Shown here one piece after another: positions 5,464 to 57,118 of a stretch of 64,000 bases of DNA. Source of the stretch: a virus (taxonomy: Duplodnaviria > Caudoviricetes); the IMG/VR virus record IMGVR_UViG_3300029288_007102, positions 96,001 to 160,000 of that record. The stretch is one strand, 5' to 3'. Below the pieces are notes generated by a model. The model saw only the letters and a list, made by a program, of their open reading frames with translations, was not told where the DNA came from and did no database searches. Positions within the stretch are counted from its first letter, which is position 1; each line of letters begins with the position of its first letter. The translations under genes and the position numbers were made by a program.

Positions 5464-5627
5464 GAGAAGATTATGATAAAGAAGAAAGAGTTTTATCTTT
5501 ATGGTGCAAAAGGCGACTATCAAGGGATGATCAGAACCTATACCCGGGAAGAAGCATTAGAGCAGGCGTTAGAGAAATTGGGTATCGATCTTACGCTAGA
5601 ACCTCGGGTATAAAAAGGAGAGGAACT

Positions 5628-6104
5628 ATGGCAAGTGTCCATTTTGTGAAAAAAGCTAGAAAAGCAAACAAGGAAGCTGGAATAAAGAAGGGTGAAAGTT
5701 ATTATTGGTGGTCCTTTAAATTCGGCGGGAAACGTTACAGTAAAACTTTACCAAGAGCTTCCCAATTAACACAGTCTGACTTCTTAAGTCAGGCATATAG
5801 TCTGAGTGAACAACTTGAGGATATAACTGTTGATATGGATATTGACGAGATAAGGTCTCAAGTGGAAGATGTTGTTGAACAGATCCGTAGTTTAGGAGAA
5901 GAGCAGGCGGAGAAGTATGATAATATGCCTGAGGGGTTACAGTCTGGTAGTACAGGAGAGTTGCTCCAGGGACGTGTGGATGAGTGTGAAGATTGGGCTT
6001 CTAATCTAGAGAGTGTTGATTTTGGGGACATTACTAATAAAGATACGGAAGTAAAATTGGACTTGATAGAAGAATTAAACAGTTGCGGATATAAAGGGGA
6101 ATAA
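5628..6104 (+). CDS. Hypothetical phage protein
   Basis: ORF with AGGAG SD; acidic C-terminus. Confidence 0.65.
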   Translation: MASVHFVKKARKANKEAGIKKGESYYWWSFKFGGKRYSKTLPRASQLTQSDFLSQAYSLSEQLEDITVDMDIDEIRSQVEDVVEQIRSLGEEQAEKYDNMPEGLQSGSTGELLQGRVDECEDWASNLESVDFGDITNKDTEVKLDLIEELNSCGYKGE

Positions 6105-10415: not shown

Positions 10416-10496
10416 CTTGAAGTGGTGGAATTGGCAGACATAGGGACTCTAGTCCCGGGCGGAAACGCCGTGTTGGTTCAAACCCAACCTTCAAGA
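10416..10496 (+). tRNA. Class II (Leu-like) tRNA or pseudo-tRNA with shortened anticodon loop
   Basis: Acceptor CTTGAAG/CTTCAAG, D region GTGGAATTGGCAGAC, arm GGGAC-TCTA-GTCCC, long variable arm GGCG-GAAA-CGCC, T arm GTTGG-TTCAAAC-CCAAC; no CCA. Confidence 0.75.
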
Positions 10497-11848: not shown

Positions 11849-13192
11849 ATGAAAATCGAGATAAATGAGCAATTCAAGAAAGCTTTAGATCTAATGGAAA
11901 ATACAAATAAAAACATTTTTATTACGGGCGTGGCGGGTGTTGGTAAAAGTGTTCTTTTGTCTTATTTCCAGGCAATCACGAGCAAACGTTTGGCCGTCTT
12001 AGCCCCTACTGGGGTCGCCGCCCTCAACGTTAAAGGGGAGACGATCCACTCCTTCTTTTGTTTTAGACCTGGGATTACCAAAGAAAAAGTTTGGGAATTA
12101 AAGGTTAGTAATAAGAGAAGAATTTTATACCGTAACCTTCAAATGATAATTATTGATGAAGTTTCTATGGTACGGGCAGACTTGTTTGATTGTGTTGACG
12201 CATTTCTTAAAATTTATGGGCCAGCACCAGGGAAACCTTTTGGTGGGGTTCAAGCTGTTTTTATAGGAGATCTTCATCAGCTTCCCCCAGTAGTTACAGG
12301 CAAAGAAAATTTTATTTTTAAGAGATTCTATGATAGCCCTTATTTTTTCTCTGCCAAAAGTTTTAATAAGTTAAACGTAGAGCTTGTTGAGTTGACAAAA
12401 GTTTATAGGCAGAAAGACCCGGTTTTTATTGATCTATTAAACGCTATAAGGAACAATTGTCTTACGACAGATCAACTTATCTTGCTTAATACAAGAGTGG
12501 GAGCAGAGTTGCCAAGTGATAAGAGTGGTTATTCGGTTTATCTTACTACCACTAACAAAAAAGCTTCAAAGGTAAATGAAGAATCTTTGCGATCTATGGA
12601 GACAAAGATACACACTTTTAAGGCAAAGATTGCGGGGAACATAGATCGGTCTTTTTATCCTACTGACGAGGAACTTCAAATTGGTGCGGGTGCCCAGATA
12701 ATGCTACTAAATAATGATAGTCAAGATCGCTGGGTAAACGGTTCTATTGGAAGAGTTATTAAAATATATACTTTTGATGAGGATTGGACAGAAGCAAACA
12801 TAGATGTCCAATTAGACAATGGAAAGGTTGTTACTGTCGTTCCTCATTCTTGGGAAATTTTCTCTTATTTTTATAATAAAGAAAGGAATATTATTGATGC
12901 CGAAAGGATGGGGTCGTTTAGGCAGTTCCCTTTGAAACTGGCTTTTAGTTGTACTGTTCATAAGAGCCAAGGGAAAACATTCCCTTTGGTAAAATTAGAT
13001 TTAAGCCAAGGGATATTTGCACATGGACAGGCTTATGTGGCTCTAAGCCGTTGTGTGTCGCTAGAGGGATTGTCTTTAGAACAACCCTTTGATCAGAAGC
13101 ATATTTTAACTGATAGGGTTGTAGTTGAGTTTATGAAATGGTTGAGAGGGAAGGAAGAAGCAAATGTTCAGGAAATACGAAAAAACATTTAG
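11849..13192 (+). CDS. PIF1/RecD-like SF1B helicase
   Basis: GVAGVGKS Walker A, APTGVAA, IIDEVSM, GDLHQLPPV, TVHKSQG, YVALSR. Confidence 0.92.
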   Translation: MKIEINEQFKKALDLMENTNKNIFITGVAGVGKSVLLSYFQAITSKRLAVLAPTGVAALNVKGETIHSFFCFRPGITKEKVWELKVSNKRRILYRNLQMIIIDEVSMVRADLFDCVDAFLKIYGPAPGKPFGGVQAVFIGDLHQLPPVVTGKENFIFKRFYDSPYFFSAKSFNKLNVELVELTKVYRQKDPVFIDLLNAIRNNCLTTDQLILLNTRVGAELPSDKSGYSVYLTTTNKKASKVNEESLRSMETKIHTFKAKIAGNIDRSFYPTDEELQIGAGAQIMLLNNDSQDRWVNGSIGRVIKIYTFDEDWTEANIDVQLDNGKVVTVVPHSWEIFSYFYNKERNIIDAERMGSFRQFPLKLAFSCTVHKSQGKTFPLVKLDLSQGIFAHGQAYVALSRCVSLEGLSLEQPFDQKHILTDRVVVEFMKWLRGKEEANVQEIRKNI

Positions 13193-13826
13193 AATATTGG
13201 TTCCGCAGATAGATATTCACGGAAAATATTTTCTGTCTGATCAGGATACTAAGCGATTATTTGGCGGGAAGCTAATTATAACCGAGAAGTTGGATGGGGC
13301 CAATGTAGGTATTGTCCGGCATAAGGATACCTATCGGCTCCAAAAGCGGGGATCCCTGGTAGATCGTTCGGAACATGAGCAGTACAACTTCTTCCGGGAC
13401 TGGGCTTTTAGGAATGAAGATAAGCTGATGAGGCTGCCTAAGGGGACTGTCGCCTATGGGGAATTGATGCGGTGTATTCATACTATACATTATAATAGAC
13501 TGCCGGATTGGGTTTGCTTCTTTGACATCTGGTCCAATCAACATAATGAATATCTCCCTTGGGATGAAACTGTTGAGATATTTAAAGAGATCGGTCTTTA
13601 TACTGTTCCCTGGATAAACTCTTGTGAGGGCGTAAATAGGGGCAACATCTTCAACATGATCCCTAAAATCAGCCTATATGGGTCTGGAGATGCAGAAGGG
13701 GTAGTGGTTAAGAATTATCGCCAACAGCTCCGGGGCAAGGTTGTCCAGGAAAAGTTTGTGAAGGAAATGGAAGAGTCAGATCATTGGAGACAGCAACCTT
13801 TACGATTTAATTCTCTTCGGGGGTAA
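13164..13826 (+). CDS. ATP-dependent RNA ligase (Rnl2-like RNA_ligase family)
   Basis: TEKLDGAN motif I, YGE, FFDI, EGVVVK. Confidence 0.8.
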   Translation: MFRKYEKTFRILVPQIDIHGKYFLSDQDTKRLFGGKLIITEKLDGANVGIVRHKDTYRLQKRGSLVDRSEHEQYNFFRDWAFRNEDKLMRLPKGTVAYGELMRCIHTIHYNRLPDWVCFFDIWSNQHNEYLPWDETVEIFKEIGLYTVPWINSCEGVNRGNIFNMIPKISLYGSGDAEGVVVKNYRQQLRGKVVQEKFVKEMEESDHWRQQPLRFNSLRG

Positions 13827-15152: not shown

Positions 15153-15452
15153 ATGTATACTTATAAACCGGATAGATGTAAGGTGCCAATAAATGTATAT
15201 GCATTAGAAGGTTCTATAGAACCTAGTGCATTGGAACAGATAGAGAACACTGCCAGCTTGCCTTTTGCTGAAGGTGTAGTCCTGATGCCGGATGGGCATT
15301 TTGGAAAGGGTGCTCCGATTGGCGGAGTCCTAGCTACCTCTGGAGTTGTAGTCGTCAATTTCGTAGGCGTGGATATTGGGTGTTCTGTTTCATCGTATAA
15401 GACAAATTTATTGGCAGAGAGTAAAACAAAATCCGATAGCCTTAAAGGTTAA
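15153..15452 (+). pseudogene. rtcB: Truncated RtcB RNA ligase (N-terminal ~85 aa only)
   Basis: LEQIENTASLP, MPDGHFGKGAPIGGV and VGVDIGC are RtcB hallmarks; ORF stops at 99 aa. Confidence 0.85.
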
Positions 15453-15571
15453 GTTAATGGATATCAAACATAACACACTTCGGGAACGGATGGATGCGTT
15501 AGAGCTGGGAATAAAAATTTATTTAACTAACAAATATAGGAAGGCCTTAAAAGCTTTGACAGGGGAAGAAA

Positions 15572-16941: not shown

Positions 16942-17571
16942 ATGAAAAAACGTACTTATTTGATCCAGAGATTGTGTTTCCCGGTAAAGCGTCCAGATGG
17001 AAAGTTAAATAAGTTAATGGAAGTCCTCTCCTTTGGTGGGGGTTTTATTCACGGAGGGCTTACAGAGGATGCTATGGGATTGCTCAGACCTATTTTTAAT
17101 TTTGATTATATGGGCTCAGCAGAGTTTGAATGGGGTGCTGTGCCTAAATCTCTTAACGAAATTGCTCATAACAACGAACAATATGTGCGGGGAGAAATCT
17201 TAATAAAAAGTAAAAATACCCCGATTTACTATATTTGCCGAAAGGAAGATGAGACTGATGTTCAAGATCTTATCCAACAGTTAGCGGCAGATCAATATAG
17301 GAATTTGAAAGAAAGATCTATGGTAAAGGAAGTTGTAGATGGAGACTCTTACGCTAAAGACCGTATAGGAGGTTGGTTGGAGATAGATAACCATTTCTTT
17401 TTCTTTACAGACAAGATAATGTTTGAGAAAGTGGCAGAGTTATTCCAAATCAAGGAAACAGACAAGATAATGTTTGAGAAAGTGGCAGAGTTATTCCAAA
17501 TCAAGGAAACAGACAAGATAATGTTTGAGAAAGTGGCAGAGTTATTCCAAATCAAGGAAGAGGTAAAATGA
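16942..17571 (+). CDS. Hypothetical phage protein with triplicated C-terminus
   Basis: FDYMGSAEFEWG motif; TDKIMFEKVAELFQIKE x3. Confidence 0.7.
   Translation: MKKRTYLIQRLCFPVKRPDGKLNKLMEVLSFGGGFIHGGLTEDAMGLLRPIFNFDYMGSAEFEWGAVPKSLNEIAHNNEQYVRGEILIKSKNTPIYYICRKEDETDVQDLIQQLAADQYRNLKERSMVKEVVDGDSYAKDRIGGWLEIDNHFFFFTDKIMFEKVAELFQIKETDKIMFEKVAELFQIKETDKIMFEKVAELFQIKEEVK
17407..17559 (+). repeat. Perfect 51-bp tandem repeat x3
   Basis: ACAGACAAGATAATGTTTGAGAAAGTGGCAGAGTTATTCCAAATCAAGGAA starting at 17407, 17458 and 17509. Confidence 0.95.
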
Positions 17572-18578
17572 AGGATAAAATATTAAAAGAAGTAGGGAAT
17601 ATAATTTCCCCGGTTTATCTGGTAGGGGGTTGTGTAAGAGATCATCTCTTAGGGTTGACCCCTAAGGATTGGGATCTCACTACGCCGCTTTTGCCGGAAG
17701 AGATAGAACACCGGATCCGGGAGGCGGGGCGTAGGCCATATCTTACTGGCAAGCGTTTTGGCACCATAGGGGTTAAAATAGATGGCCAACTGGTAGAGAT
17801 TACCACTTTCCGGTCTGAAACTTATATAAGTGGCTCCAGGAAGCCTCAGGTTCAATTTGTACAAGCTTTGGAGTCTGACCTAAGCCGCCGGGACTTTACT
17901 ATTAATTCTATGGCTATCGGCCAGGATGGCACTATTTATGACCCATTTAATGGAAAAAGGGATCTTGAATATAATATTCTCCGTTGTGTGGGGAAGGCGA
18001 ATGAGCGGCTTAAAGAAGACCCTTTAAGGCTCCTCAGGGCTGCCAGATTTATTTCTCAGTTGGGTTTTGTTATGGATGAAGATGATGAAGATATGTGTCT
18101 ACAGTTAAATTATAAAATCTTGGAAGTCAGTAAAGAAAGATGGGTAATGGAATTAGATAAGCTTCTGATGGGGGAATATGTAGATGAGGGGTTAAATTTT
18201 TTGGCTAGAACGGAGATTCTGCGATATATTCTACCTGAGTTATGGTTGCAGATAGGATATGACCAGAGAAATGAGCATCACACTCGGACTCTTTGGGACC
18301 ACACTGTAAAGGCAGTAGAATCCTGTGACAAGAGTATAGAACTTCGTTGGGCGGCTCTTTTGCATGATATTGCAAAGCCGATAATGGCAAAAGAGAAAAA
18401 AAATAGCCTTGGCCAGTGGAATTATCACAAGCACGATTTAGTTGGGGCGGAAATGGCCTTAAAGCTTGCTTATTATTTGAGGTGGTCTAATGACCGCCGG
18501 GAGACTGTTGTTTCCTTGATCAAGAACCATATGGATGAGGAAAGTCCATTGAAAAAGGCAGATAGGCTGGCAAAGTAA
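17568..18578 (+). CDS. cca: tRNA nucleotidyltransferase (CCA-adding/poly(A) polymerase family) with HD domain
   Basis: VGGCVRD, DWDLTT, EITTFR, DLSRRDFTINSMA, EDPLRLLRAARF, LLHDIAK. Confidence 0.92.
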   Translation: MKDKILKEVGNIISPVYLVGGCVRDHLLGLTPKDWDLTTPLLPEEIEHRIREAGRRPYLTGKRFGTIGVKIDGQLVEITTFRSETYISGSRKPQVQFVQALESDLSRRDFTINSMAIGQDGTIYDPFNGKRDLEYNILRCVGKANERLKEDPLRLLRAARFISQLGFVMDEDDEDMCLQLNYKILEVSKERWVMELDKLLMGEYVDEGLNFLARTEILRYILPELWLQIGYDQRNEHHTRTLWDHTVKAVESCDKSIELRWAALLHDIAKPIMAKEKKNSLGQWNYHKHDLVGAEMALKLAYYLRWSNDRRETVVSLIKNHMDEESPLKKADRLAK

Positions 18579-18768
18579 AGTACTTGTTGTGCGGACAGTG
18601 AGCCGATAAGGAATCATACGGTCTGCAGGCCGTGAGAATGGTGCGAGTCTACCAAGACTGCAAGTCAAACCTTGCCAACAGGTACTTTGAAAATAGGCGG
18701 ATGTATTATCATTGTTCATAACCAGGAATGTTTATGAGCAGGCTTTACGGCCTAGCATCCGCCTATTT
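18577..18768 (+). ncRNA. Two adjacent candidate structured RNAs
   Basis: Closing stems AAAGTACTTGTTG/CAACAGGTACTTT (18577-18688) and AAATAGGCGGATGT/GCATCCGCCTATTT (18691-18768) with internal hairpins. Confidence 0.55.
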
Positions 18769-19337
18769 ACTAATTAAGTATTAGGAGGTATGGTGAACAG
18801 AAAAATAAGAATATATTATTGGAAGTGTGAAGACTGCGGGCTAACTTTTCAACGGATTGCAAAAGGGGAACCTCGTGTTTGCCCGCAATGTAGGGGAAAA
18901 GGGGTAAAAACATTTAAAGGGGAAGAGGTTGTAATAGAGCCTATAAGAAAAAAATGTAAGCAGAAGGCTAATAAATTTTCTTAAACAGGAGGTAAAAAAT
19001 GGCCACAAGCTTTAGGTTAAAAGTGGGTGCCGGATATTGTTCGTTAAAGTCATATGATGAACAGGAAAAATTGATAAAGAAAGCATTAAAGCCTGACCCA
19101 AAAGAGATATTTAAAATTGTAAGGAGGCTTCGCCCTGATTTGAAAGTATGTGATGAATGTGGGGAGAAGCTTAGCTCCTTCGCCAAATACATAAAAGAAG
19201 GTCATACAGGTGCTGGTGGTGGCGGAGGCTGTCGGCAGATCAAAGAAGCGATCCAGAAAGCTAAAGTCATTTATCTTTTACAGGAAGCTCTCAAGGAAAA
19301 TGTTAATATTAATCTAGAGTTTATCAGTTGTTGAACG

Positions 19338-19520
19338 GGCTCTGGTGATGCTCTGCTGGAAGCATTCGGAAGTGTTTGGGCAAGTATAGCGGTTTTTCGC
19401 ACCGATAAGTTGTGGATAAAAGATAGGCCCACAAGAACGATTATACCTCTGCATAGCTACTCGGTGGGACTGTGCCAAACTACTGAAGTCCCAAAGTCAG
19501 TATAAATCTGACCCAGAGTC
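19338..19520 (+). ncRNA. tRNA-like RNA with large pseudoknotted insertion (copy 1)
   Basis: Acceptor GGCTCTGG/CCAGAGTC, D-like GATGCT-CTGCTGGA-AGCATT, T-like GTCAG-TATAAAT-CTGAC; same architecture as 53881-54014. Confidence 0.65.
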
Positions 19521-19540
19521 TTAATTTAAGGAGAAGAATA

Positions 19541-20281
19541 ATGAAATTGAACATGAACAAAGAAATTAAATCACCTTTAGTTGTTGGCTATAAAGGAGAG
19601 ATCGGGTCCTTTATATTACAAGGCTTATTAAAGGTAATACCAAAAGCTTTGAATATATGGTGCTATGATGTGTATGAGGCAAGATCGGAAGTGTTAAACC
19701 GGATTAGAAAGGCTGATGTTATTTTTCTCTGTATACCTATGGAAGAGACAATTACTTGGTTTGAGAAAAATAAAGGTCTGTTAAGAGGGAAAGTTTTAAT
19801 AGAACAATGTTCTCTTAAAACAAAAATATGTTCACACATAAAGAAACAAGAAAAGGAATGGGGCTTTACTTTACTTTCTATGCATATCCTCTTCCGCCCT
19901 TCGGCTACCCCGAATATAGAGGATCGGCGTGTAGCTTTAATTGACGCTAAATCTTGGCCTAATAGTTATAGGGCGTGTATACTGGCAACGACAAATTCTT
20001 CCCCCATTTTATTTTTGACCTGTTTGGAGCATGATATTGTTATGGCTTATCAGCAGGCTTTAGTACATCGTGTGATATTAGTGTTAGATAGATTATCGAG
20101 TGATCTACCAGGGAAAACCTATATTAGTGGCAAGATCTGTGAATTAGCAAAAAGGATAAGATCCGGGGATCCCACTTTGTATTCCTTAATCCAAGAGAAC
20201 GAATCTCTTCCTTTTGCTTTATCAAGGTTTACTGATGAGTTTAGAAATTTTGACATTAAGAAAGAGATGGAGAAAAAGTGA
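19541..20281 (+). CDS. Prephenate dehydrogenase (TyrA)-like protein
   Basis: Rossmann VVGYKGEIG, ADVIFLCIP, EQCSLK, SMHILF, EHD.VMAYQQALVH. Confidence 0.7.
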   Translation: MKLNMNKEIKSPLVVGYKGEIGSFILQGLLKVIPKALNIWCYDVYEARSEVLNRIRKADVIFLCIPMEETITWFEKNKGLLRGKVLIEQCSLKTKICSHIKKQEKEWGFTLLSMHILFRPSATPNIEDRRVALIDAKSWPNSYRACILATTNSSPILFLTCLEHDIVMAYQQALVHRVILVLDRLSSDLPGKTYISGKICELAKRIRSGDPTLYSLIQENESLPFALSRFTDEFRNFDIKKEMEKK

Positions 20282-20730
20282 AAGGCTATTTTGAGATAGG
20301 GATTTGCAACGGGAAGAATACAATGAATGTAGGCACACTCTGGAGATCTGCTTACCAGTTAGGTGCTACGGGTATTTTCACTATAGGCAAAAGGCTACCG
20401 CTCCAGGCTAGTGATACTTATAAGACTTGCCGACAGATCCCTTTGAGGGAATATCTTACAATAGAGCAATTTTTGGAGAACAGGCCATTTGACTGTCAAC
20501 TGATTGGGGTAGAGATGGACGGCAAACCTATATCCGGGTTCACTCATCCAGCCCGGGCTTTATATGTTTTGGGGGCTGAGGATCAGGGGTTGCCACAGAG
20601 TTTGATAGAAAAATGTGATCATATAATAACTCTGGATGCTATACGCAGACCATCTTTTAATGTAGCGGTAGCCGGAAGTATAGTAATGTATCATCGGGTG
20701 TTTAATCTAAAAGGGGTAGGGAATGGATAA
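20278..20730 (+). CDS. SpoU/TrmH-family RNA 2'-O-methyltransferase
   Basis: NVGTLWRSA, LGAEDQGL, SFNVAVAGSIVMY SPOUT motifs. Confidence 0.9.
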   Translation: MKGYFEIGICNGKNTMNVGTLWRSAYQLGATGIFTIGKRLPLQASDTYKTCRQIPLREYLTIEQFLENRPFDCQLIGVEMDGKPISGFTHPARALYVLGAEDQGLPQSLIEKCDHIITLDAIRRPSFNVAVAGSIVMYHRVFNLKGVGNG

Positions 20731-22431: not shown

Positions 22432-23451
22432 ATGAAATATAAACCCCCAAAAACAAGATCCAAAATGCTTCCTCAAGAATTGCTAGATGAATTTTTAGAT
22501 ATCGAGCAGGATGGTTTTCTTAGAATGCATGCACAAGAGAGAGAGCAAAGGGCTATAGTCGATGAGCTTAAAAGAAGAGGCTTGGTTCTTTTGGAGTCTA
22601 CCGACCCGAAAAATGATGGCTTTGATTGGGCTATAGGTAAATTTGAGAAAGGTAAAAAACTCTGGCAGAATAATGAGATGATATGTAAAGGAGAAAAAAT
22701 GAGCAGTAAGAGTTGGTATGAAAGGATGAGGGTAAATAAAAGAATATTGACCCCTACATTTTTAACTGAAATGTATTTAAATAAAAAACTTTCTACTTTA
22801 ACTATTGCTCGGCTCTTAAACAACCAATGTTCTGCGACAACTGTCCGCAATTATTTGAATATATATAAAATACCTATTAGGGGTGTTCACGAATTTCTTG
22901 TCCCCCAGCGGACAAAAGAATATTGGACGCCTGAAAAAAGAAAGATACATGGAGAGATACTTAAAAACAGCGAAGCGTACAAAATAGGGATAAAAAACAG
23001 AAAACAAAGTGGTCCGTTAAATGGCATGTTTGGCAGAAAACACACTATTGAAACTAGAAAGAAAAGGTCTAAAGTTCGTACTGGGAAGATTGGAGAAAAT
23101 GCAACCGGATGGAAAGGCGGGAAACAGTCTTTAATTAAAAGAGTTAAAGCTTATATTCATAGGACTCTTAATTGGTATAAGCGAGTATATGCCCGGGATG
23201 GCTTTCGGTGTACTGAATGTGGGGGCAAAGAAAAGATAGATGCTCATCACATAAAGTCTATATCCACCATTGTTAAAGAATTATTAGCGACCTGTGATAT
23301 TGAATTTAAAAACTCAGATGAAAAATATTTATGGTTGATTAAGCAACCAAGAATAGTAGATAAGTATTTAAAGAACGGTATTACCCTATGTAGAAAGTGC
23401 CATAAAGTAAAGCACAAAAATTGGGGAAGTCATTATGGAGGAGGGAATTAG
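22432..23451 (+). CDS. NUMOD3-HNH homing endonuclease, in frame with an upstream small ORF (internal start 22699)
   Basis: GMFGRKHTIETRKK NUMOD3, RDGFRCTECG..IDAHHIK, NGITLCRKCH; AAGGAG SD before ATG 22699. Confidence 0.75.
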   Translation: MKYKPPKTRSKMLPQELLDEFLDIEQDGFLRMHAQEREQRAIVDELKRRGLVLLESTDPKNDGFDWAIGKFEKGKKLWQNNEMICKGEKMSSKSWYERMRVNKRILTPTFLTEMYLNKKLSTLTIARLLNNQCSATTVRNYLNIYKIPIRGVHEFLVPQRTKEYWTPEKRKIHGEILKNSEAYKIGIKNRKQSGPLNGMFGRKHTIETRKKRSKVRTGKIGENATGWKGGKQSLIKRVKAYIHRTLNWYKRVYARDGFRCTECGGKEKIDAHHIKSISTIVKELLATCDIEFKNSDEKYLWLIKQPRIVDKYLKNGITLCRKCHKVKHKNWGSHYGGGN

Positions 23452-23456
23452 AAGTT

Positions 23457-24140
23457 ATGGATAATATGGCGATTGCGAAAAGAATGAAAGACTATGAGCG
23501 GGTAACAGAAATTATGTTGCCCCACCGCATTCCAGTAATCTTAAGAGTAGATGGCCGGGCTTTCCATACTATTACCCGTAAGAGATTTGGCAGAGCCTGG
23601 TCTCTGGAGTTTGTAGAGCAGATGGTCGAAATGGCTAAGGTTGTCCAGAAAGACATCCAAGGATGCGACTTCTGCTATTCTCAGTCTGATGAAGTTTCTT
23701 TTTTGCTTACTGACTATAAGACCATTAGGACTAATGCCTGGTTTGATTATGACCTGCGTAAACTTATATCTATCTCTTCTTCCTTGGCCGCATCCGTATT
23801 CTCCCGGATTTATGGAAAGCCTGTCTGCTTTGACAGCCGGGCGTTCACGGTGCCTCACGATGATGTTTGCAACTACTTTGTGTGGAGGCAGATAGATGCC
23901 ACCAGGAATGCGATTCAGATGGCTGGTCGGGAGCATTTCTCCCATAAGCAGTTGCAAAACGTGAGCTGTAATGAGATCCAAGAGAAATTATTCCAGGAGA
24001 AGAAGATTAATTTCAACGACTACCCGATAGTCCGGAAAAGGGGATTTTGTATTGTTGATGGGAAGCCAGATTTTGCGATTCCTATCTTTAGTAAGGACCG
24101 GGCTTTTGTGGAGAAGTATGTCAATGTGAGGGAGGATTAG
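23457..24140 (+). CDS. thg1: tRNA(His) guanylyltransferase Thg1-like protein
   Basis: RMKDYE, RVDGRAFH, YSQSDEVS, FDSRAF, YFVWRQ.DA.RN. Confidence 0.92.
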   Translation: MDNMAIAKRMKDYERVTEIMLPHRIPVILRVDGRAFHTITRKRFGRAWSLEFVEQMVEMAKVVQKDIQGCDFCYSQSDEVSFLLTDYKTIRTNAWFDYDLRKLISISSSLAASVFSRIYGKPVCFDSRAFTVPHDDVCNYFVWRQIDATRNAIQMAGREHFSHKQLQNVSCNEIQEKLFQEKKINFNDYPIVRKRGFCIVDGKPDFAIPIFSKDRAFVEKYVNVRED

Positions 24141-52087: not shown

Positions 52088-52090
52088 CAA

Positions 52091-52366
52091 GTCCAAGGCA
52101 CCGTACATCCACTTAAACGTGAGGTGGGTAGGTGATAATACAGCTAAAAAGAGGCGTTGATCCTAAGCCAAACAGTGCTGAGAGGGTTGGTAAGGGGAGT
52201 CTCTCCTTGTGACATTTAAAAGAATTGCTCCCGCCAGGGGATTGCTTCCCGGGACGCTTATCGGAGGAGGCCTGGAGAACGATAAGACCTGACTTGCTCG
52301 GGACAGATGCGAGAAGCATAGCAGACATTAGCAAGTGGCTTGACGAGCCCGGAGAGACGGGCACTT
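52091..52366 (+). ncRNA. Candidate ~275-nt structured RNA
   Basis: GC-rich gene-free gap; ends can pair (GTC-C-AAG/CTTGAC); terminal hairpin GCCCG-GAGAGA-CGGGC. Confidence 0.5.
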
Positions 52367-52388: not shown

Positions 52389-53477
52389 ATGGCCAAAATA
52401 GATTTGGTTGAGATGCATAAGAGAAGAGATCTTCGTTTAGTTACCCGCAAGAAACACCCTACATTAGATTTATATATCTGGAACTATACACCTGAATGTC
52501 AATATAGCCGGGCTTGGGATGAGTACACCAAGATGGCTAGAGGATTGATTACTGATGGTGAAGGGAATATTGTTGCCAGACCTTTCAGTAAATTTTTCAA
52601 TTTAAATGAAGCAGAAGAAACGAAGATAGAAAACTTACCATTAGAGATCCCGGAGATAACGGAGAAGGTTGACGGGAGCCTTGCCATACAATATTATGAT
52701 GGTGGAGATAGGGTTTGTATTGCTACCCGGGGAAGTTTTGAGTCTGAACAGGCAATCTTTGCTACAGACTGGCTTTACCGAAAAGGGTATGTTAAAAATG
52801 CTTTTAAAGAAGAATATACTTATTTATGGGAAATAATATATCCACAGAATCGTATAGTTGTTTCTTATGGTGATTTTTCCGGCTTGATCTTACTTGCTGT
52901 TGTTGAAATTGAAACTGGCAAGGAGATAGATCATGTGCAAGAGGCACAAATATTAGGGGTGAGATCTTCGCAAAGAATAAATAAAACAGTTGATGAGTTA
53001 GTGAGTATTTGCAAAGACACTTCTATAAAAGGTACAGAGATGGAGGGCTTTGTTCTTAAATATAGTAATGGCCTGAGGGTTAAGACAAAGACGGAAGAGT
53101 ATATGAGACTTCATCGGATGATCACCCATTTTTCTTCTAAGGTTATTTGGGAGATCCTGGCTAAAGGGGAGACCATTGCGGTTTATTTGGAGCAGGTACC
53201 GGATGAATTTTTCCAATGGGCAAAGGAGAAGGAGAGAGAACTTAAAGATAATTATGCGGGAGTTTATGCTACTATTATATTAGGTTATAATGATGTAAAG
53301 GATCTTCCTACCCGGAAAGACCAAGCCTTAAGGATAATGAAGGATTATAAGGCGGTCTCTGGTGGAATATTCAGTTTGTTGGATGATAAGCAGAGTAACT
53401 TGAATGATTATATCTGGAAGATGATTAAGCCGGAATATGAGTTGCCGTTTAAGGATGTTAACCGGGAGGCAGAGTGA
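52389..53477 (+). CDS. T4 Rnl1-like RNA ligase
   Basis: ARGLI, RPFSKFFN, TEKVDGS motif I, ATRGSF, EIIYPQNRIVV, EGFV, K.K..Y. Confidence 0.88.
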   Translation: MAKIDLVEMHKRRDLRLVTRKKHPTLDLYIWNYTPECQYSRAWDEYTKMARGLITDGEGNIVARPFSKFFNLNEAEETKIENLPLEIPEITEKVDGSLAIQYYDGGDRVCIATRGSFESEQAIFATDWLYRKGYVKNAFKEEYTYLWEIIYPQNRIVVSYGDFSGLILLAVVEIETGKEIDHVQEAQILGVRSSQRINKTVDELVSICKDTSIKGTEMEGFVLKYSNGLRVKTKTEEYMRLHRMITHFSSKVIWEILAKGETIAVYLEQVPDEFFQWAKEKERELKDNYAGVYATIILGYNDVKDLPTRKDQALRIMKDYKAVSGGIFSLLDDKQSNLNDYIWKMIKPEYELPFKDVNREAE

Positions 53478-53880
53478 AGCGGAAGAAGAATTACTTTAAG
53501 CCTCTAAAAGGTTTGTCGGATGGGGTAACTGTATTCTTGGCCAGGCTAGATGAAGAAATGAAATCCCCGTCGTCAGAGAATAGGGGAAGGGTGATAGCAA
53601 AACTTTGCAATGATCTTGACATGCTTAACGATACGATAAGGTATGGCTATCTTGGTGTGGATTACAGGAAAGATAAAAAATGATAGAGAGATATTTAAAC
53701 TTATAGTCAGGGGGGGGTGGTTCCTTTGGGAGAAAAATCGAGAGAAGTGAGAAGAAATAACGACGGTTCCCGTACAGAGAAAGTAAAGTATGATGATGGT
53801 AGTGGGCATGATAAGACTACCAGGAATGGCGATTTTGTGTCATACAAAAAATATAAAGGGAAATAAATGTTGGTTATTTT

Positions 53881-54014
53881 TGATAGGTGTGGTGGTCTGG
53901 CGAAACCATCGTTAACACTAGTGCGAGTTGAGAGCCTCGCCCGTAAACATTAAAATGTGTGTCTGCTACTAGCGGCTGAAGGACACAAAGTAGGTTCGAA
54001 TCCTATGCCTATCA
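53881..54014 (+). ncRNA. tRNA-like RNA with pseudoknotted insertion (copy 2)
   Basis: Acceptor GATAGGT/GCCTATC, D-like GGTGGT-CTGGCGAA-ACCATC, canonical T arm GTAGG-TTCGAAT-CCTAT. Confidence 0.7.
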
Positions 54015-54026
54015 AAAATATTATAA

Positions 54027-54097
54027 CTGGGTGAGGTGTTGCGGTAGCATTTGCGGCCTGGGACCGTAAGGGGAAAGTTCGACTCTTTCCATCCAGA
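54027..54097 (+). tRNA. tRNA-Pro(TGG), non-canonical
   Basis: CTGGGTG/CATCCAG-A acceptor, TGCGG-CCTGGGA-CCGTA anticodon arm, GAAAG-TTCGACT-CTTTC T arm; C1:G72 and A73; no CCA. Confidence 0.8.
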
Positions 54098-54345
54098 AAG
54101 TTTAGATTGGCTGGCTATAAGACGGAGAATCTCACGCAGTAAGATATCTACTTGTAAATAGCTTTCCAAGAGAGGGTATCCAGCTAGTCTATTAAAGGAT
54201 GTTTCTATGAACTGTGAAGGTTGTGGAGTATTGTTTGGCGATCTTGGTGAGGGGTATTCTTGTGACACTTTCTATGAGGACGGTAAGGTTGTGGAGAGTA
54301 TAACTTGTGATATTTGTGGGTTCACAAAAACACATGAAGTCTTAT

Positions 54346-54421
54346 CCCCGGCCTGTAGTGTAAATACCTAGGCTAGCACGGCCACAGGCAAGAGCAGGCT
54401 GTAATGTCTGCCAGGCTGGGG
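54346..54421 (+). ncRNA. Anticodon-less tRNA-like RNA
   Basis: CCCCGGCCTG/CAGGCTGGGG stem, TA-GTGT...GCAC D arm, vestigial GCC-ACA-GGC, GCAGGC-TGTAAT-GTCTGC. Confidence 0.55.
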
Positions 54422-54441
54422 TTAAAATAAGGAGATAGATA

Positions 54442-55461
54442 GTGATTGAAAGAGAAATGGCGGAAGCCAATAAAATATTAGTAATCAGAACCGGGTCGCA
54501 TATGTATGGGACTAATCTCCCGAATTCTGATGAGGATAAGATGGGGGTGTTTATAGCTGACGAAGATTACTATCTTGGGTTGAAGACGGTAGAAGAAGTG
54601 GATTTTTCTGTACAGGAGAAGGATGAAAGAGGAAAGAATACAAAGGATGCTCTGGATTATAAGCTTTACGAGTTTAAGAAGTATATAAAGCTTGCTTGTG
54701 ATTGTAATCCGAACATCATAGAAATGTTGTATGTCAATGAACCAAACATTCTTTTTATCAATGATTTTGGGAAGACGTTATTGGAGCATCGGGAATTGTT
54801 TCCTAACCAGAGAGCTTACTATAAGTTTATTGGGTATGCCCACTCTCAGAAGCATAAGATGATTATAAAGGGGGATCATTACAGCCAAATTATGGCAGCC
54901 CATGCCTATTTGAAGGAGCTGCCAAACCGGGCCATAATGAAAGACTTTGAGAAGAAAGAGCTTCCGTTTTTGGTCTACAACAAGAATGCTTTTATTGAAG
55001 TGGGGGATATGAGGATCCCTACAAATACCACTGCCAAGAAGGCGACGGCTTTGCTGAAGGGGAGAATTGACCGCTTTGGTAATAGGACTGAGCTGATTAG
55101 TAAGTACGGTTATGATCTCAAGTTTGGTTCGCATTTGGTTAGGTTATTGGTTGAGGGGATAGAGTTGTTGAAGACTGGGGAGTTGCAGTATCCTATAAAA
55201 GAAAGGCAGCTGATCCTGGATGTCCGGCAAGGCAGATATACTCTCAAACAGGTATTTGATATGTATGATGAGTTGAGTAAGGAGATAGACTCAGTGTTTG
55301 CCAATACTAAGCTGCCGCATCACCCGGATATAAATAAGATAAATGATTTTTTGAAAAATATTGTTAAAAAGAAATGTGGTTTCCCAGTTAAAAGTTTCAG
55401 TAAAAATTGTGTAAGATGGATAGAAGGGGTATTAAATTTGCTAAAAGGGGGAAGATTGTAA
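54442..55461 (+). CDS. Pol-beta-superfamily nucleotidyltransferase (Nuc-transf type)
   Basis: GSHMYGTN.PNSDEDKMGVF, NPNIIE, YD.K..SHLVRL. Confidence 0.8.
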   Translation: MIEREMAEANKILVIRTGSHMYGTNLPNSDEDKMGVFIADEDYYLGLKTVEEVDFSVQEKDERGKNTKDALDYKLYEFKKYIKLACDCNPNIIEMLYVNEPNILFINDFGKTLLEHRELFPNQRAYYKFIGYAHSQKHKMIIKGDHYSQIMAAHAYLKELPNRAIMKDFEKKELPFLVYNKNAFIEVGDMRIPTNTTAKKATALLKGRIDRFGNRTELISKYGYDLKFGSHLVRLLVEGIELLKTGELQYPIKERQLILDVRQGRYTLKQVFDMYDELSKEIDSVFANTKLPHHPDINKINDFLKNIVKKKCGFPVKSFSKNCVRWIEGVLNLLKGGRL

Positions 55462-57118
55462 TGCCATCATCAGAGCAGGTATCAGAAGGAAGAAAAGAGA
55501 AAATTGTTTTTGTCCGGGGGTTGCTTAAAGAAACTCCGAAGCTGAGGGCGACAGATATTTATGTCGCAGTTAAGACGAAATTTGGTAGTGGTATTGATGG
55601 AATAATGGTAAGAAAATTAAAACAGGAAGTGGATCCTAGTTATGTGGGGAAGAGGAGAAGGACGACAGGGAGAGTCTTCCCTGACGCTTTGGATGGGACA
55701 GGAAGATTGCCTGGAGAGATCGACCTTAAGAGGAGAGTTGATGTAAACACTATGTATTTTTCTTTTAGGAAGGTTGGGGCAACAGACAGCCAAGCTCGGG
55801 CTGCTGTATTAGATGCTACTGGAATAAGGCCGCTGGTCTTTGAATTTAAGAAGGAGCAGCTAGAGCAAGCCCAAGAGGATTTATCTAAATACAGACTTGC
55901 CTGTTTTAATCTTAACAAGAAGGGTGAGATCGTTCGGGTGAATCCGGTGAGGGTAACGGTCCAAGAGAAAAGGGGGCGGAAGAAGGAGAGTGAAAGGGCA
56001 CCCCAGCAGAATTAATTAAAAGTATCTTAGTAAAAGGAGAAGTGATGAGTGAAAGAGATTTTCGTTCTTTAGGGGAAGGCGATTTGCTTAAATGCATAAG
56101 GTTTATCCCAACGGGGAAAGATAAGGGGTATATCTTTTTAGATATAGAAGATAATATTGTTAAAATTTCTGAAACTGTTATTACGGCTTCTGTGCGAGTA
56201 GGGGATACCTTTGCGGTGTTGTCGATCAAAGAAGATGGTATGCCTTTATTTAAAAAGCTTTTTTCTGGGCAGACAGATAGGATAAAAAAGGTTTACCCAA
56301 AAAAAGAGTTGGCTATTACTTTGTATGCCTTTGCGGAGAATGAGGTTAACACGGCGGCCTATAAGCGTATGGATACAATAGACGAGGCGGTAGAGTTCTT
56401 TAAACAACTTTTGAATAAGCCGGAAATAACCATTATTAATGTTAGGAAGTTAAAACTAAAGGTTGGCGAAGAGAAGGGGATCTGATGCCAGAAGATGATG
56501 TTTTAGAGCGAGTAGCAAAGGTGTTGGCTAGGAAGAAATTACTTGAGGAGTATTCTAAGGCAATATTGTGTGTTAGAGAGACTTTTACCGAATTAGGTAA
56601 AATTTCAATGTCTGGTCAAGATTATATTAAAAGCTTTTCTAGCCTATTGGTGGTGTTAGGGCAGACGGCTGATCGGATGATTTATTTTTTAGGCAAACCT
56701 TTAGAGGAAGTACCGCTTATACAGTTTGATGGAGAATTGAAACGAATGGTGGATTTGAATGGGATTTTGGATGCGGCAAAGAAAAAGTTGAAATAATGAG
56801 GGGGGGGTATATGGAGGGGGAGAATGTAGACCAAAGGGGTTCTGTTCAAAAATATTTAGGGATAGATGATATACGGGCCAAGATAATACAAGATTTTATT
56901 ATAAAAGTATTTGGCGAGAATCTCTCTTTGGTTGAGATTTTTAAGAAGATAGAAGACAATAGTGAATTTGTAGACAAAGAGAAAAATTATGCATATTTCG
57001 CTAGCGGATCTTTTGTGACTTATAAGAGTTTAGTGCAAATGTTTAATGAGATGGCGTCAATGATGAAGATTGTTAACGAAGATTCTAATAGGCCATTAAA
57101 TTAAAGTAGGTGGTTTAG

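Follow-up and report, generated by a model that had tools for sequence, protein, structure and literature searches.

A candidate non-decoding tRNA mimic, with a folded module in the place of the anticodon arm, encoded among RNA-repair genes of a large phage

The tRNA cluster of phage T4 contains, beside its tRNA genes, two genes for stable RNAs, rnaC (RNA C, species 1, 139 nt) and rnaD (RNA D, species 2, 119 nt), whose function is, to our knowledge, still unknown and has gone unexplained for fifty years. A gene of similar size was analyzed here in a phage of the Caudoviricetes: a 134-base element at positions 53881–54014 of a 64,000-nucleotide window, this being the whole stretch of DNA under study and corresponding to bases 96001–160000 of the 183-kb IMG/VR virus record IMGVR_UViG_3300029288_007102. 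The element keeps the top half of a tRNA and carries a folded module of 79 bases where the anticodon arm should be, and a paralogue of the same architecture, hereafter copy 1 (19338–19520, 183 nt), is found 34 kb away. T4 rnaC likewise has a canonical T arm by its 3′ end (CCGGG-UUCGAAU-CCCGG), a hairpin 3 nt upstream of the T arm, and no usable anticodon arm. It differs in its mismatched acceptor-like stem, and neither the type of D arm common to the element and copy 1 nor their pseudoknot design (strands a and a′, see below) was seen in it by eye. A blastn search with positions 53000–55500 against 50,697 phage records gave no match, and hence none to rnaC or rnaD. Judged by this comparison, RNA C and RNA D would be the nearest published kind, with the T arm and the general layout alone in common, and membership is not claimed for the element.

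The usual reasons given for tRNA genes in phages are codon supply and the replacement of those host tRNAs that defence nucleases have destroyed. An RNA that is fit for trimming, CCA addition and repair, and that has no readable anticodon, suits neither explanation. Our favoured reading, to which we give slightly less than an even chance, is that the element is a stable, tRNA-derived, non-decoding mimic, which either baits or competes for the host nucleases that attack tRNA, or else engages the phage's repair enzymes as a partner or substrate. That it is a selected, non-decoding tRNA mimic is held with more confidence than either specific role. The element points to tRNA mimicry as a tool in phage–host conflict or RNA repair and, as a second, differently built case inside a repair-gene island, would offer a concrete handle on the puzzle of RNA C and RNA D. 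A practical lesson for annotation is that genes of this kind escape standard tRNA finders or are wrongly labelled as tRNAs with introns.

Two further kinds of RNA invite comparison. YrlA (RF02553) is non-decoding, mimics the D/T elbow of tRNA, and is processed by RNase P and receives CCA in M. smegmatis (Chen et al. 2014, PMC4201824). It resembles the element in being a tRNA look-alike; tRNA enzymes act on it, and its gene is often found in RNA-repair neighbourhoods. A tRNA-like domain with extra structure would suit a Y RNA, and YrlA-type RNAs do occur in phages (PMC4201824); an acceptor/T-arm minihelix closing a larger structured RNA with a pseudoknot recalls the layout of tmRNA. However, that the element is a YrlA-like Y RNA or a miniature tmRNA-like RNA is scarcely credible. 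YrlA is circularly permuted, its ends lying in the stem that replaces the anticodon arm, whereas the topology found here is not permuted, and the Ro60-binding motif, any GGUCCGA-like motif and an adjacent Ro60 gene are all absent. The best RF02553 match in the whole phage genome reached 10.7 bits (gathering cut-off 69) and lay elsewhere; the TROVE domain of Ro60 (PF05731) had no match in the 183-kb record, and the 646-aa neighbour gave no TROVE match in Pfam or PDB sequence searches and none of TROVE/TerD type. As to tmRNA, 134 nt is far below its size, a full D stem is present, G3:U70 is lacking, the phage has no SmpB gene, and neither ARAGORN nor Rfam called the element.

Layout of the element

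All genes of the window lie on the + strand, as do the parts of the element, tRNA-Pro and copy 1; G+C content is about 40%, with a strong skew of G over C. The 5′ strand of the acceptor stem, UGAUAGGU (53881–53888), forms 8 bp with GCCUAUCA (54007–54014), the pairs from the top being U-A, G-C and A-U. Base-pair probability was 0.95–1.0 for seven of the eight pairs and 0.54 for the terminal U-A, and ARAGORN drew the same stem. A canonical acceptor of 7 bp can also be read, with G53882 as first base (G53882-C54013) and A54014 as discriminator; the eighth pair is then U53881-A54014. A link of 2 nt leads to the D arm (53891–53910), which has a 6-bp stem, GGUGGU/ACCAUC, and an 8-nt loop, CUGGCGAA; in a plain fold the probability of this stem was 0.19. 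On the 3′ side, an AAA spacer and the T arm GUAGG-UUCGAAU-CCUAU occupy 53987–54006 (T arm 53990–54006), with a loop of the TΨC type, and the T arm directly abuts the 3′ strand of the acceptor. Beyond the acceptor, the flanks UAUUUU (53875–53880) and AAAAUA (54015–54020) pair with each other as leader and trailer and prolong the closing helix to 13–14 bp; a repeat search registered this as a perfect 13-nt inverted repeat, 53875–53887/54008–54020. CCA is not encoded.

The interval between the D stem and the T stem measures 79 nt (53911–53989), as against about 22 in a tRNA. It opens with a 7-nt linker, GUUAACA (53911–53917), equal in length to the linker CGGAAGU of copy 1; a canonical tRNA has 1 nt at this position. 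Then follow strand a of the proposed pseudoknot, CUAGUG (53918–53923), hairpin H1, GCGAG-UUGAGAGC-CUCGC (53923–53940, base-pair probability 0.84–0.89), and hairpin H2, ACAU-UAAA-AUGU (53947–53958, probability 0.47–0.63), which abuts the 5-bp stem b/b′, GUGUC/GACAC (53959–53963/53982–53986, probability 0.9). The 18-nt loop of b/b′ contains UG, strand a′ (UACUAG, 53967–53972) and the conserved CUGAAG (53976–53981). An anticodon arm of canonical form, with a 5-bp stem and a 7-nt loop placed 1 nt past the D stem, is not found, the candidate loops being of 8, 4 and 18 nt. Because the folded module occupies the place of that arm, the element almost certainly cannot read codons. A sigma-70-like promoter match, TTGAGA-17 nt-TAAAAT (10/12), falls within this variable module at 53928–53956; a transcript could start from it just before stem b, or the match may be due to chance in AT-rich sequence.

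The Rfam tRNA model RF00005 did not match the element even at E ≤ 10, whereas it gave 39.9 bits for the neighbouring tRNA-Pro(UGG) at 54027–54097, a canonical tRNA also called by ARAGORN, which begins after a spacer of 12 nt. ARAGORN with default settings and the tmRNA search left the element uncalled with or without introns. Over 53700–54500 and 18300–19700, Rfam at the gathering threshold and at E ≤ 10 returned tRNA-Pro alone, and no ribozyme, group I intron, tmRNA or YrlA. The chance of meeting the tRNA parts was assessed with a descriptor requiring the T loop on a T stem of 5 bp, next to it an acceptor of 7 bp, and a D stem, within a total of 84–284 nt. In the 183-kb genome it found the element and two poor, AT-rich matches, against 0.27 matches per shuffled genome; a looser version without the T-loop sequence was unspecific. 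The exact word GGTTCGAATCC occurs once in the window. On these grounds the acceptor, D and T parts are of tRNA grade, beyond chance: a 7-bp acceptor, the 2-nt link, a D stem, and a T arm at the acceptor with the loop UUCGAAU. A preliminary description of this DNA had claimed a canonical T arm and acceptor stem, some 80 nt with the hairpin GCGAG/CTCGC in the place of the anticodon arm, a tRNA-Pro 12 nt downstream, and an RNA that is tRNA-like without being an ordinary tRNA. The first three are present in the sequence as claimed, and the last agrees with the silence of the standard finders over parts of tRNA grade.

Over-long genes of tRNA shape have precedents in very large phages. The tRNAs of Lak megaphages are reported to carry "enigmatic" introns, and there too bacterial finders fail and intron-aware settings call interrupted tRNAs (Devoto et al. 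2019, PMC6784885). The element might by analogy be a decoding tRNA-Ser with anticodon GCU or ACU, from which an intervening sequence of 48–50 nt is removed after transcription and which the phage's Rnl1 might reseal, the gene of an Rnl1-type ligase being found 400 nt upstream. With introns allowed and a lowered threshold, ARAGORN did report a tRNA-Ser(GCU) interrupted after position 31 by an insert of 48 nt. Ser-type tRNAs of T4 and of a related phage are similar to the element in T stem and acceptor, and when every contiguous segment of 30–75 nt was deleted in turn and each variant submitted to default ARAGORN, 40 of the 1587 variants drew a call, the identity being Ser(ACU) or Ser(GCU) in nearly every case. 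However, no excision yielded a convincing tRNA. The anticodon stems that this reading requires are weak (CGUUA/UAGCG with one G·U, or 6 bp with a mismatch and two G·U pairs), and the spliced product would have a stemless variable region of 15 nt, unlike any tRNA-Ser. The position of the insert is non-canonical and its 48 nt fall well below the length that self-splicing as a group I intron would need; a tRNA splicing endonuclease (PF01974) was not found in the genome, the best score, 12.9 bits, falling short of the cut-off and belonging to a stretch of the opposite strand that contains stop codons. The same excision scan of copy 1 gave no tRNA call in 2156 variants, so that an intron fails to explain the architecture common to both copies. 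We therefore consider an interrupted tRNA-Ser quite unlikely.

The paralogue and covariation between the copies

Copy 1 presents the parts in the same order, with a larger variable domain. An 8-bp acceptor, a G-U link and a 6-bp D stem are followed by the 7-nt linker, the 6-mer GUUUGG and two hairpin domains, one of them far larger than its counterpart in the element. A 5-bp stem, GGGAC/GUCCC, then closes a 17-nt loop that starts with UG, contains CCAAAC and ends in CUGAA(G), and an AAA spacer leads to the T arm, whose loop is UAUAAAU. The spacers of the two copies are equal in length, and the loop motifs CUG..G.A, UG, CUGAAG and AAA-G are common to both.

Sequence comparison of the two copies revealed compensatory changes in every helix, and none of the five helices contains a mismatch in either copy. 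All 30 proposed pairs are standard in both; 14 of them are changed on both sides and 5 on one side. The D arm of copy 1, GAUGCU-CUGCUGGA-AGCAUU (8-nt loop), differs from that of the element by one double and two single compensatory changes. Identity between the copies was 62% in unpaired core columns (23/37), as against 47% in paired columns (29/62), and from stem b through the AAA spacer 19 of 31 columns are identical. Conserved loops on compensating stems are the pattern expected of a selected structured RNA. A covariance model (R1) built on the 3′ half found exactly two matches in the 183-kb genome, the element at 68 bits and copy 1 at 67.2 bits. The proposal that the element is the second copy of a family thus agrees with its order of parts, spacing and covarying helices, within the compass of two sequences from one genome.

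The element had also been described as pseudoknotted. Strands a and a′ can form five Watson–Crick pairs and one G·U, and in copy 1 the equivalent GUUUGG/CCAAAC can be extended to 8 bp with one bulge, the adjacent loop motifs being fixed; the calculated energies of the a/a′ duplex are −6.4 kcal/mol for the element and −9.3 kcal/mol for copy 1. Nested folding retains the b/b′ hairpin, and by its nature cannot display a/a′. When the loops were shuffled, a Watson–Crick helix of equal or greater length arose in 12% of cases for the element (p = 0.12) and in 3.4% for copy 1 (p = 0.034), and a helix of that length was far commoner with G·U pairs allowed. Of the earlier statement, the complementarity and its covariation between the copies are borne out; the pairing itself is not established by these shuffles and two sequences, and formation of the pseudoknot is plausible, its chances being roughly even.

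These data also bear on whether the element could be a functionless relic, either a tRNA pseudogene in decay or a tRNA gene that an insertion has broken. Standard tools do not recognise it, its nearest relatives lack it and its folding z-score is unremarkable; the promoter match within it would fit such an origin, and a fragment of RtcB in this phage (see below) betrays some gene decay under way. Against this, the five helices are intact in both copies and the closing repeat is perfect over 13 nt. Random decay would hardly damage one arm alone in two paralogues and leave both with the same non-trivial replacement design. The same phage was found in two other assemblies, in one of which the element carries a single SNP, C53948U (second metagenome), the sole polymorphism seen inside it; this turns a C-G pair of H2 into U·G and so preserves the pair. 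The probability that the element is a relic is accordingly put low, in the region of one chance in eight.

Gene neighbourhood and possible role

The element is flanked upstream by an Rnl1-type RNA ligase gene (52389–53477; PF09511, E = 6e-21; phrog_562, E = 7.7e-65) and downstream, beyond tRNA-Pro, by the gene of RlaP, an RNA-repair nucleotidyltransferase of the pol-beta type (54442–55461; PF10127, E = 1.1e-20; phrog_388, E = 2.2e-67). Near copy 1 are the genes of an Rnl2-like ligase (13164–13826), a CCA-adding enzyme with an HD domain (17568–18578), a SpoU methylase (20278–20730) and Thg1 (23421–24140). RtcB is represented by an N-terminal fragment alone (15237–15488; about the first 83 positions, 64.6 bits) with stop codons around it; relatives have a full RtcB of 405–412 aa adjoining the homologue of the 19541–20281 gene. 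In relatives, tRNA genes lie regularly directly upstream of RlaP, so that this phage group seems to make a practice of expressing RNAs of tRNA shape together with repair enzymes.

How a non-decoding mimic would be made and used can be outlined from these features. The 12-nt spacing suggests that the element would be transcribed in one precursor with the downstream tRNA-Pro. Host RNase P and 3′ nucleases would then cut it out, and the phage's own CCA-adding enzyme would add CCA, which neither the element nor tRNA-Pro encodes. The parts that end-processing and repair enzymes read, namely the stack of acceptor and T arm, the T loop and the D arm, are all kept. The finished RNA would act through this tRNA-like top half, the folded module barring it from decoding. 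It would either draw host defence nucleases directed at tRNA to itself, as a bait or competitor, or work with the phage's tRNA-repair enzymes, as their partner or substrate. Such a role is proposed because both copies lie inside a tRNA-repair gene island.

The placement of the copies could also reflect a signal acting in cis on RNA processing or stability, in which the tRNA shape recruits RNase P and 3′ nucleases, frees tRNA-Pro and separates mRNAs, selection holding the acceptor, T and D parts alone while the anticodon region drifts. Copy 1 fills the space from directly behind one gene's stop codon to 20 nt short of the next start; the element lies 15 nt past a small ORF and just ahead of tRNA-Pro, in a region with all genes on one strand; and conservation is best in the acceptor and T arm. 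However, the module on the anticodon side is itself constrained, its UG, CUGAAG and AAA motifs and its spacer lengths being kept between the copies and its helices covarying, and close relatives do without the element at the same sites. We regard a processing signal as unlikely, at somewhat better than one chance in seven.

Several points weigh against a selected mimic acting in defence or repair. The gene neighbourhood is the sole source of the decoy or partner role, the shuffles lend the pseudoknot modest support, and the family has two members, both in one phage lineage. Long-term conservation is not demonstrable, because the closest relatives lack both copies. The closing helix of 13–14 bp would pair leader with trailer, which is unusual for a substrate of RNase P. 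Finally, the folding energy of the element was no better than that of shuffled sequences (z = −1.27), although an unremarkable folding energy is usual for real tRNAs too.

A bolder extension of the mimic reading would take the element and copy 1 as founders of an undescribed class of "self-locked" tRNA mimics, in which an H-type pseudoknot buries the former anticodon region and leaves the acceptor/T/D half readable. Large phages would deploy such RNAs together with the ligases, the CCA-adding enzyme and Thg1 to bait host defences directed at tRNA, anticodon nucleases among them, or to coordinate tRNA repair, and this would be one case of a wider, convergent habit of big phages, that of making tRNA bodies without an anticodon. 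We put this forward tentatively and think it rather doubtful.

Distribution, ancestry and nearby structured RNAs

In the nearest relative (L014, RlaP 89% identical), the interval from the small ORF to RlaP holds tRNA-Pro as its sole RNA gene, and the element, the 49-codon ORF upstream of it and 330 nt 3′ of tRNA-Pro are missing. This presence/absence polymorphism, together with the perfect inverted repeat at the ends of the element, would be consistent with a mobile insertion derived from a tRNA, similar to a MITE with terminal inverted repeats of 13 bp. The idea is very improbable. The repeat is the acceptor helix plus six A-U pairs, copy 1 has different ends without the extension, and the insertion relative to L014 is larger than the element and includes the 49-codon ORF; no further copies were seen in the genome or in the collections searched, and a target-site duplication is not evident. 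The tRNA-Pro(UGG) of L014 (2405–2475) has an unusual T loop, GGTCCAACTCC, and that of the present phage carries U13-to-C (54039) in the second metagenome, giving a better D-stem pair.

Copy 1 is likewise absent from a relative carrying a 70%-identical homologue of its upstream gene, and relatives of its downstream gene (43–62% identity) have no such RNA. The 3′-half covariance model detected no family member in 16 related large-phage records or at 12 loci, its best matches there falling in coding sequence or in tRNAs, whether ordinary or divergent. Scans of IMG/VR and GTDB (185,579 species genomes) by sequence pattern gave nothing or chance matches, none of them tRNA-shaped; the patterns were D loop and T loop with a gap, CUGAAG...AAAGU...AAUC, the D-arm consensus (in both collections) and the exact T-arm/acceptor word (in GTDB). 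As far as can be seen, and within the searches made, the family is confined to this phage lineage. In a related 56-kb phage contig (L035), a T-arm-like hairpin with the loop UAUAAAU of copy 1 was rejected, the acceptor partner being absent. The same contig has a helix-rich non-coding gap of about 390 nt (5473–5862) upstream of its homologue of the 19541–20281 gene, with no Rfam match at E ≤ 0.1.

Sequence likeness hints that the top half of the element is of class II or Ser-type ancestry. The T stem of T4 tRNA-Ser is UAGG/CCUA, as in the element, and in a related phage record (G002) model R1 matched, with 20.2 bits at 172099, a Ser(GGA)-like class II tRNA whose T stem and acceptor strand GCCUAUC almost match those of the element. 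Unlike class II tRNA-Ser, the element lacks both a self-paired variable arm and, at the canonical position, a 5-bp stem with a 7-nt anticodon loop, and the next helix follows its D stem after 7 nt instead of 1. The G002 tRNA is 91 nt long, starts about 50 nt before the model match and ends at 1541 of L028 (172139 of G002); it has an 8-bp variable arm and an odd T loop, UUAGAUU, and was missed by ARAGORN.

The preliminary description had placed the element at the head of a cluster of odd RNAs, and this held for one of two candidates. After tRNA-Pro, 54098–54206 is closed by a 12-bp helix, UAGAUUGGCUGG/CCAGCUAGUCUA, and is absent from L014; it folds no better than shuffled sequences (z = −1.2). 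Further on, 54340–54441 forms a long hairpin (z = −2.3), closed by CCCCGGCCUG/CAGGCUGGGG. This hairpin overlaps the end of a 54-codon ORF of zinc-ribbon-like type, which had no homologue among 1.84 billion proteins, and ends at the ribosome-binding site of RlaP; the 89%-identical relative lacks the hairpin as well. Upstream of the element, a gap of about 275 nt without + strand ORF separates the 646-aa gene from Rnl1 (52088–52364), and Rfam at the gathering threshold found nothing in it.

Two more RNAs of tRNA shape lie elsewhere in the window. At 10416–10496, a class II tRNA body of Leu type (z = −3.1) has the anticodon arm GGGAC-UCUA-GUCCC, with a 4-nt loop containing CUA; ARAGORN reported it as "tRNA-???" with a 2-base anticodon, and its stem GGGAC/GUCCC is identical to b/b′ of copy 1. 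At 18577–18692, starting from the stop codon of the CCA-adding enzyme gene, a strongly structured RNA (z = −4.8) is closed by a 13-bp stem and contains a T-arm-like hairpin, GCAAG-UCAAAC-CUUGC, and a 6-bp hairpin with a 4-nt loop, ACGGUC-UGCA-GGCCGU. Relaxed ARAGORN forced it into a tRNA-Cys with an 11-nt insert, and it seems to be a further RNA of tRNA shape that lacks a usable anticodon loop.

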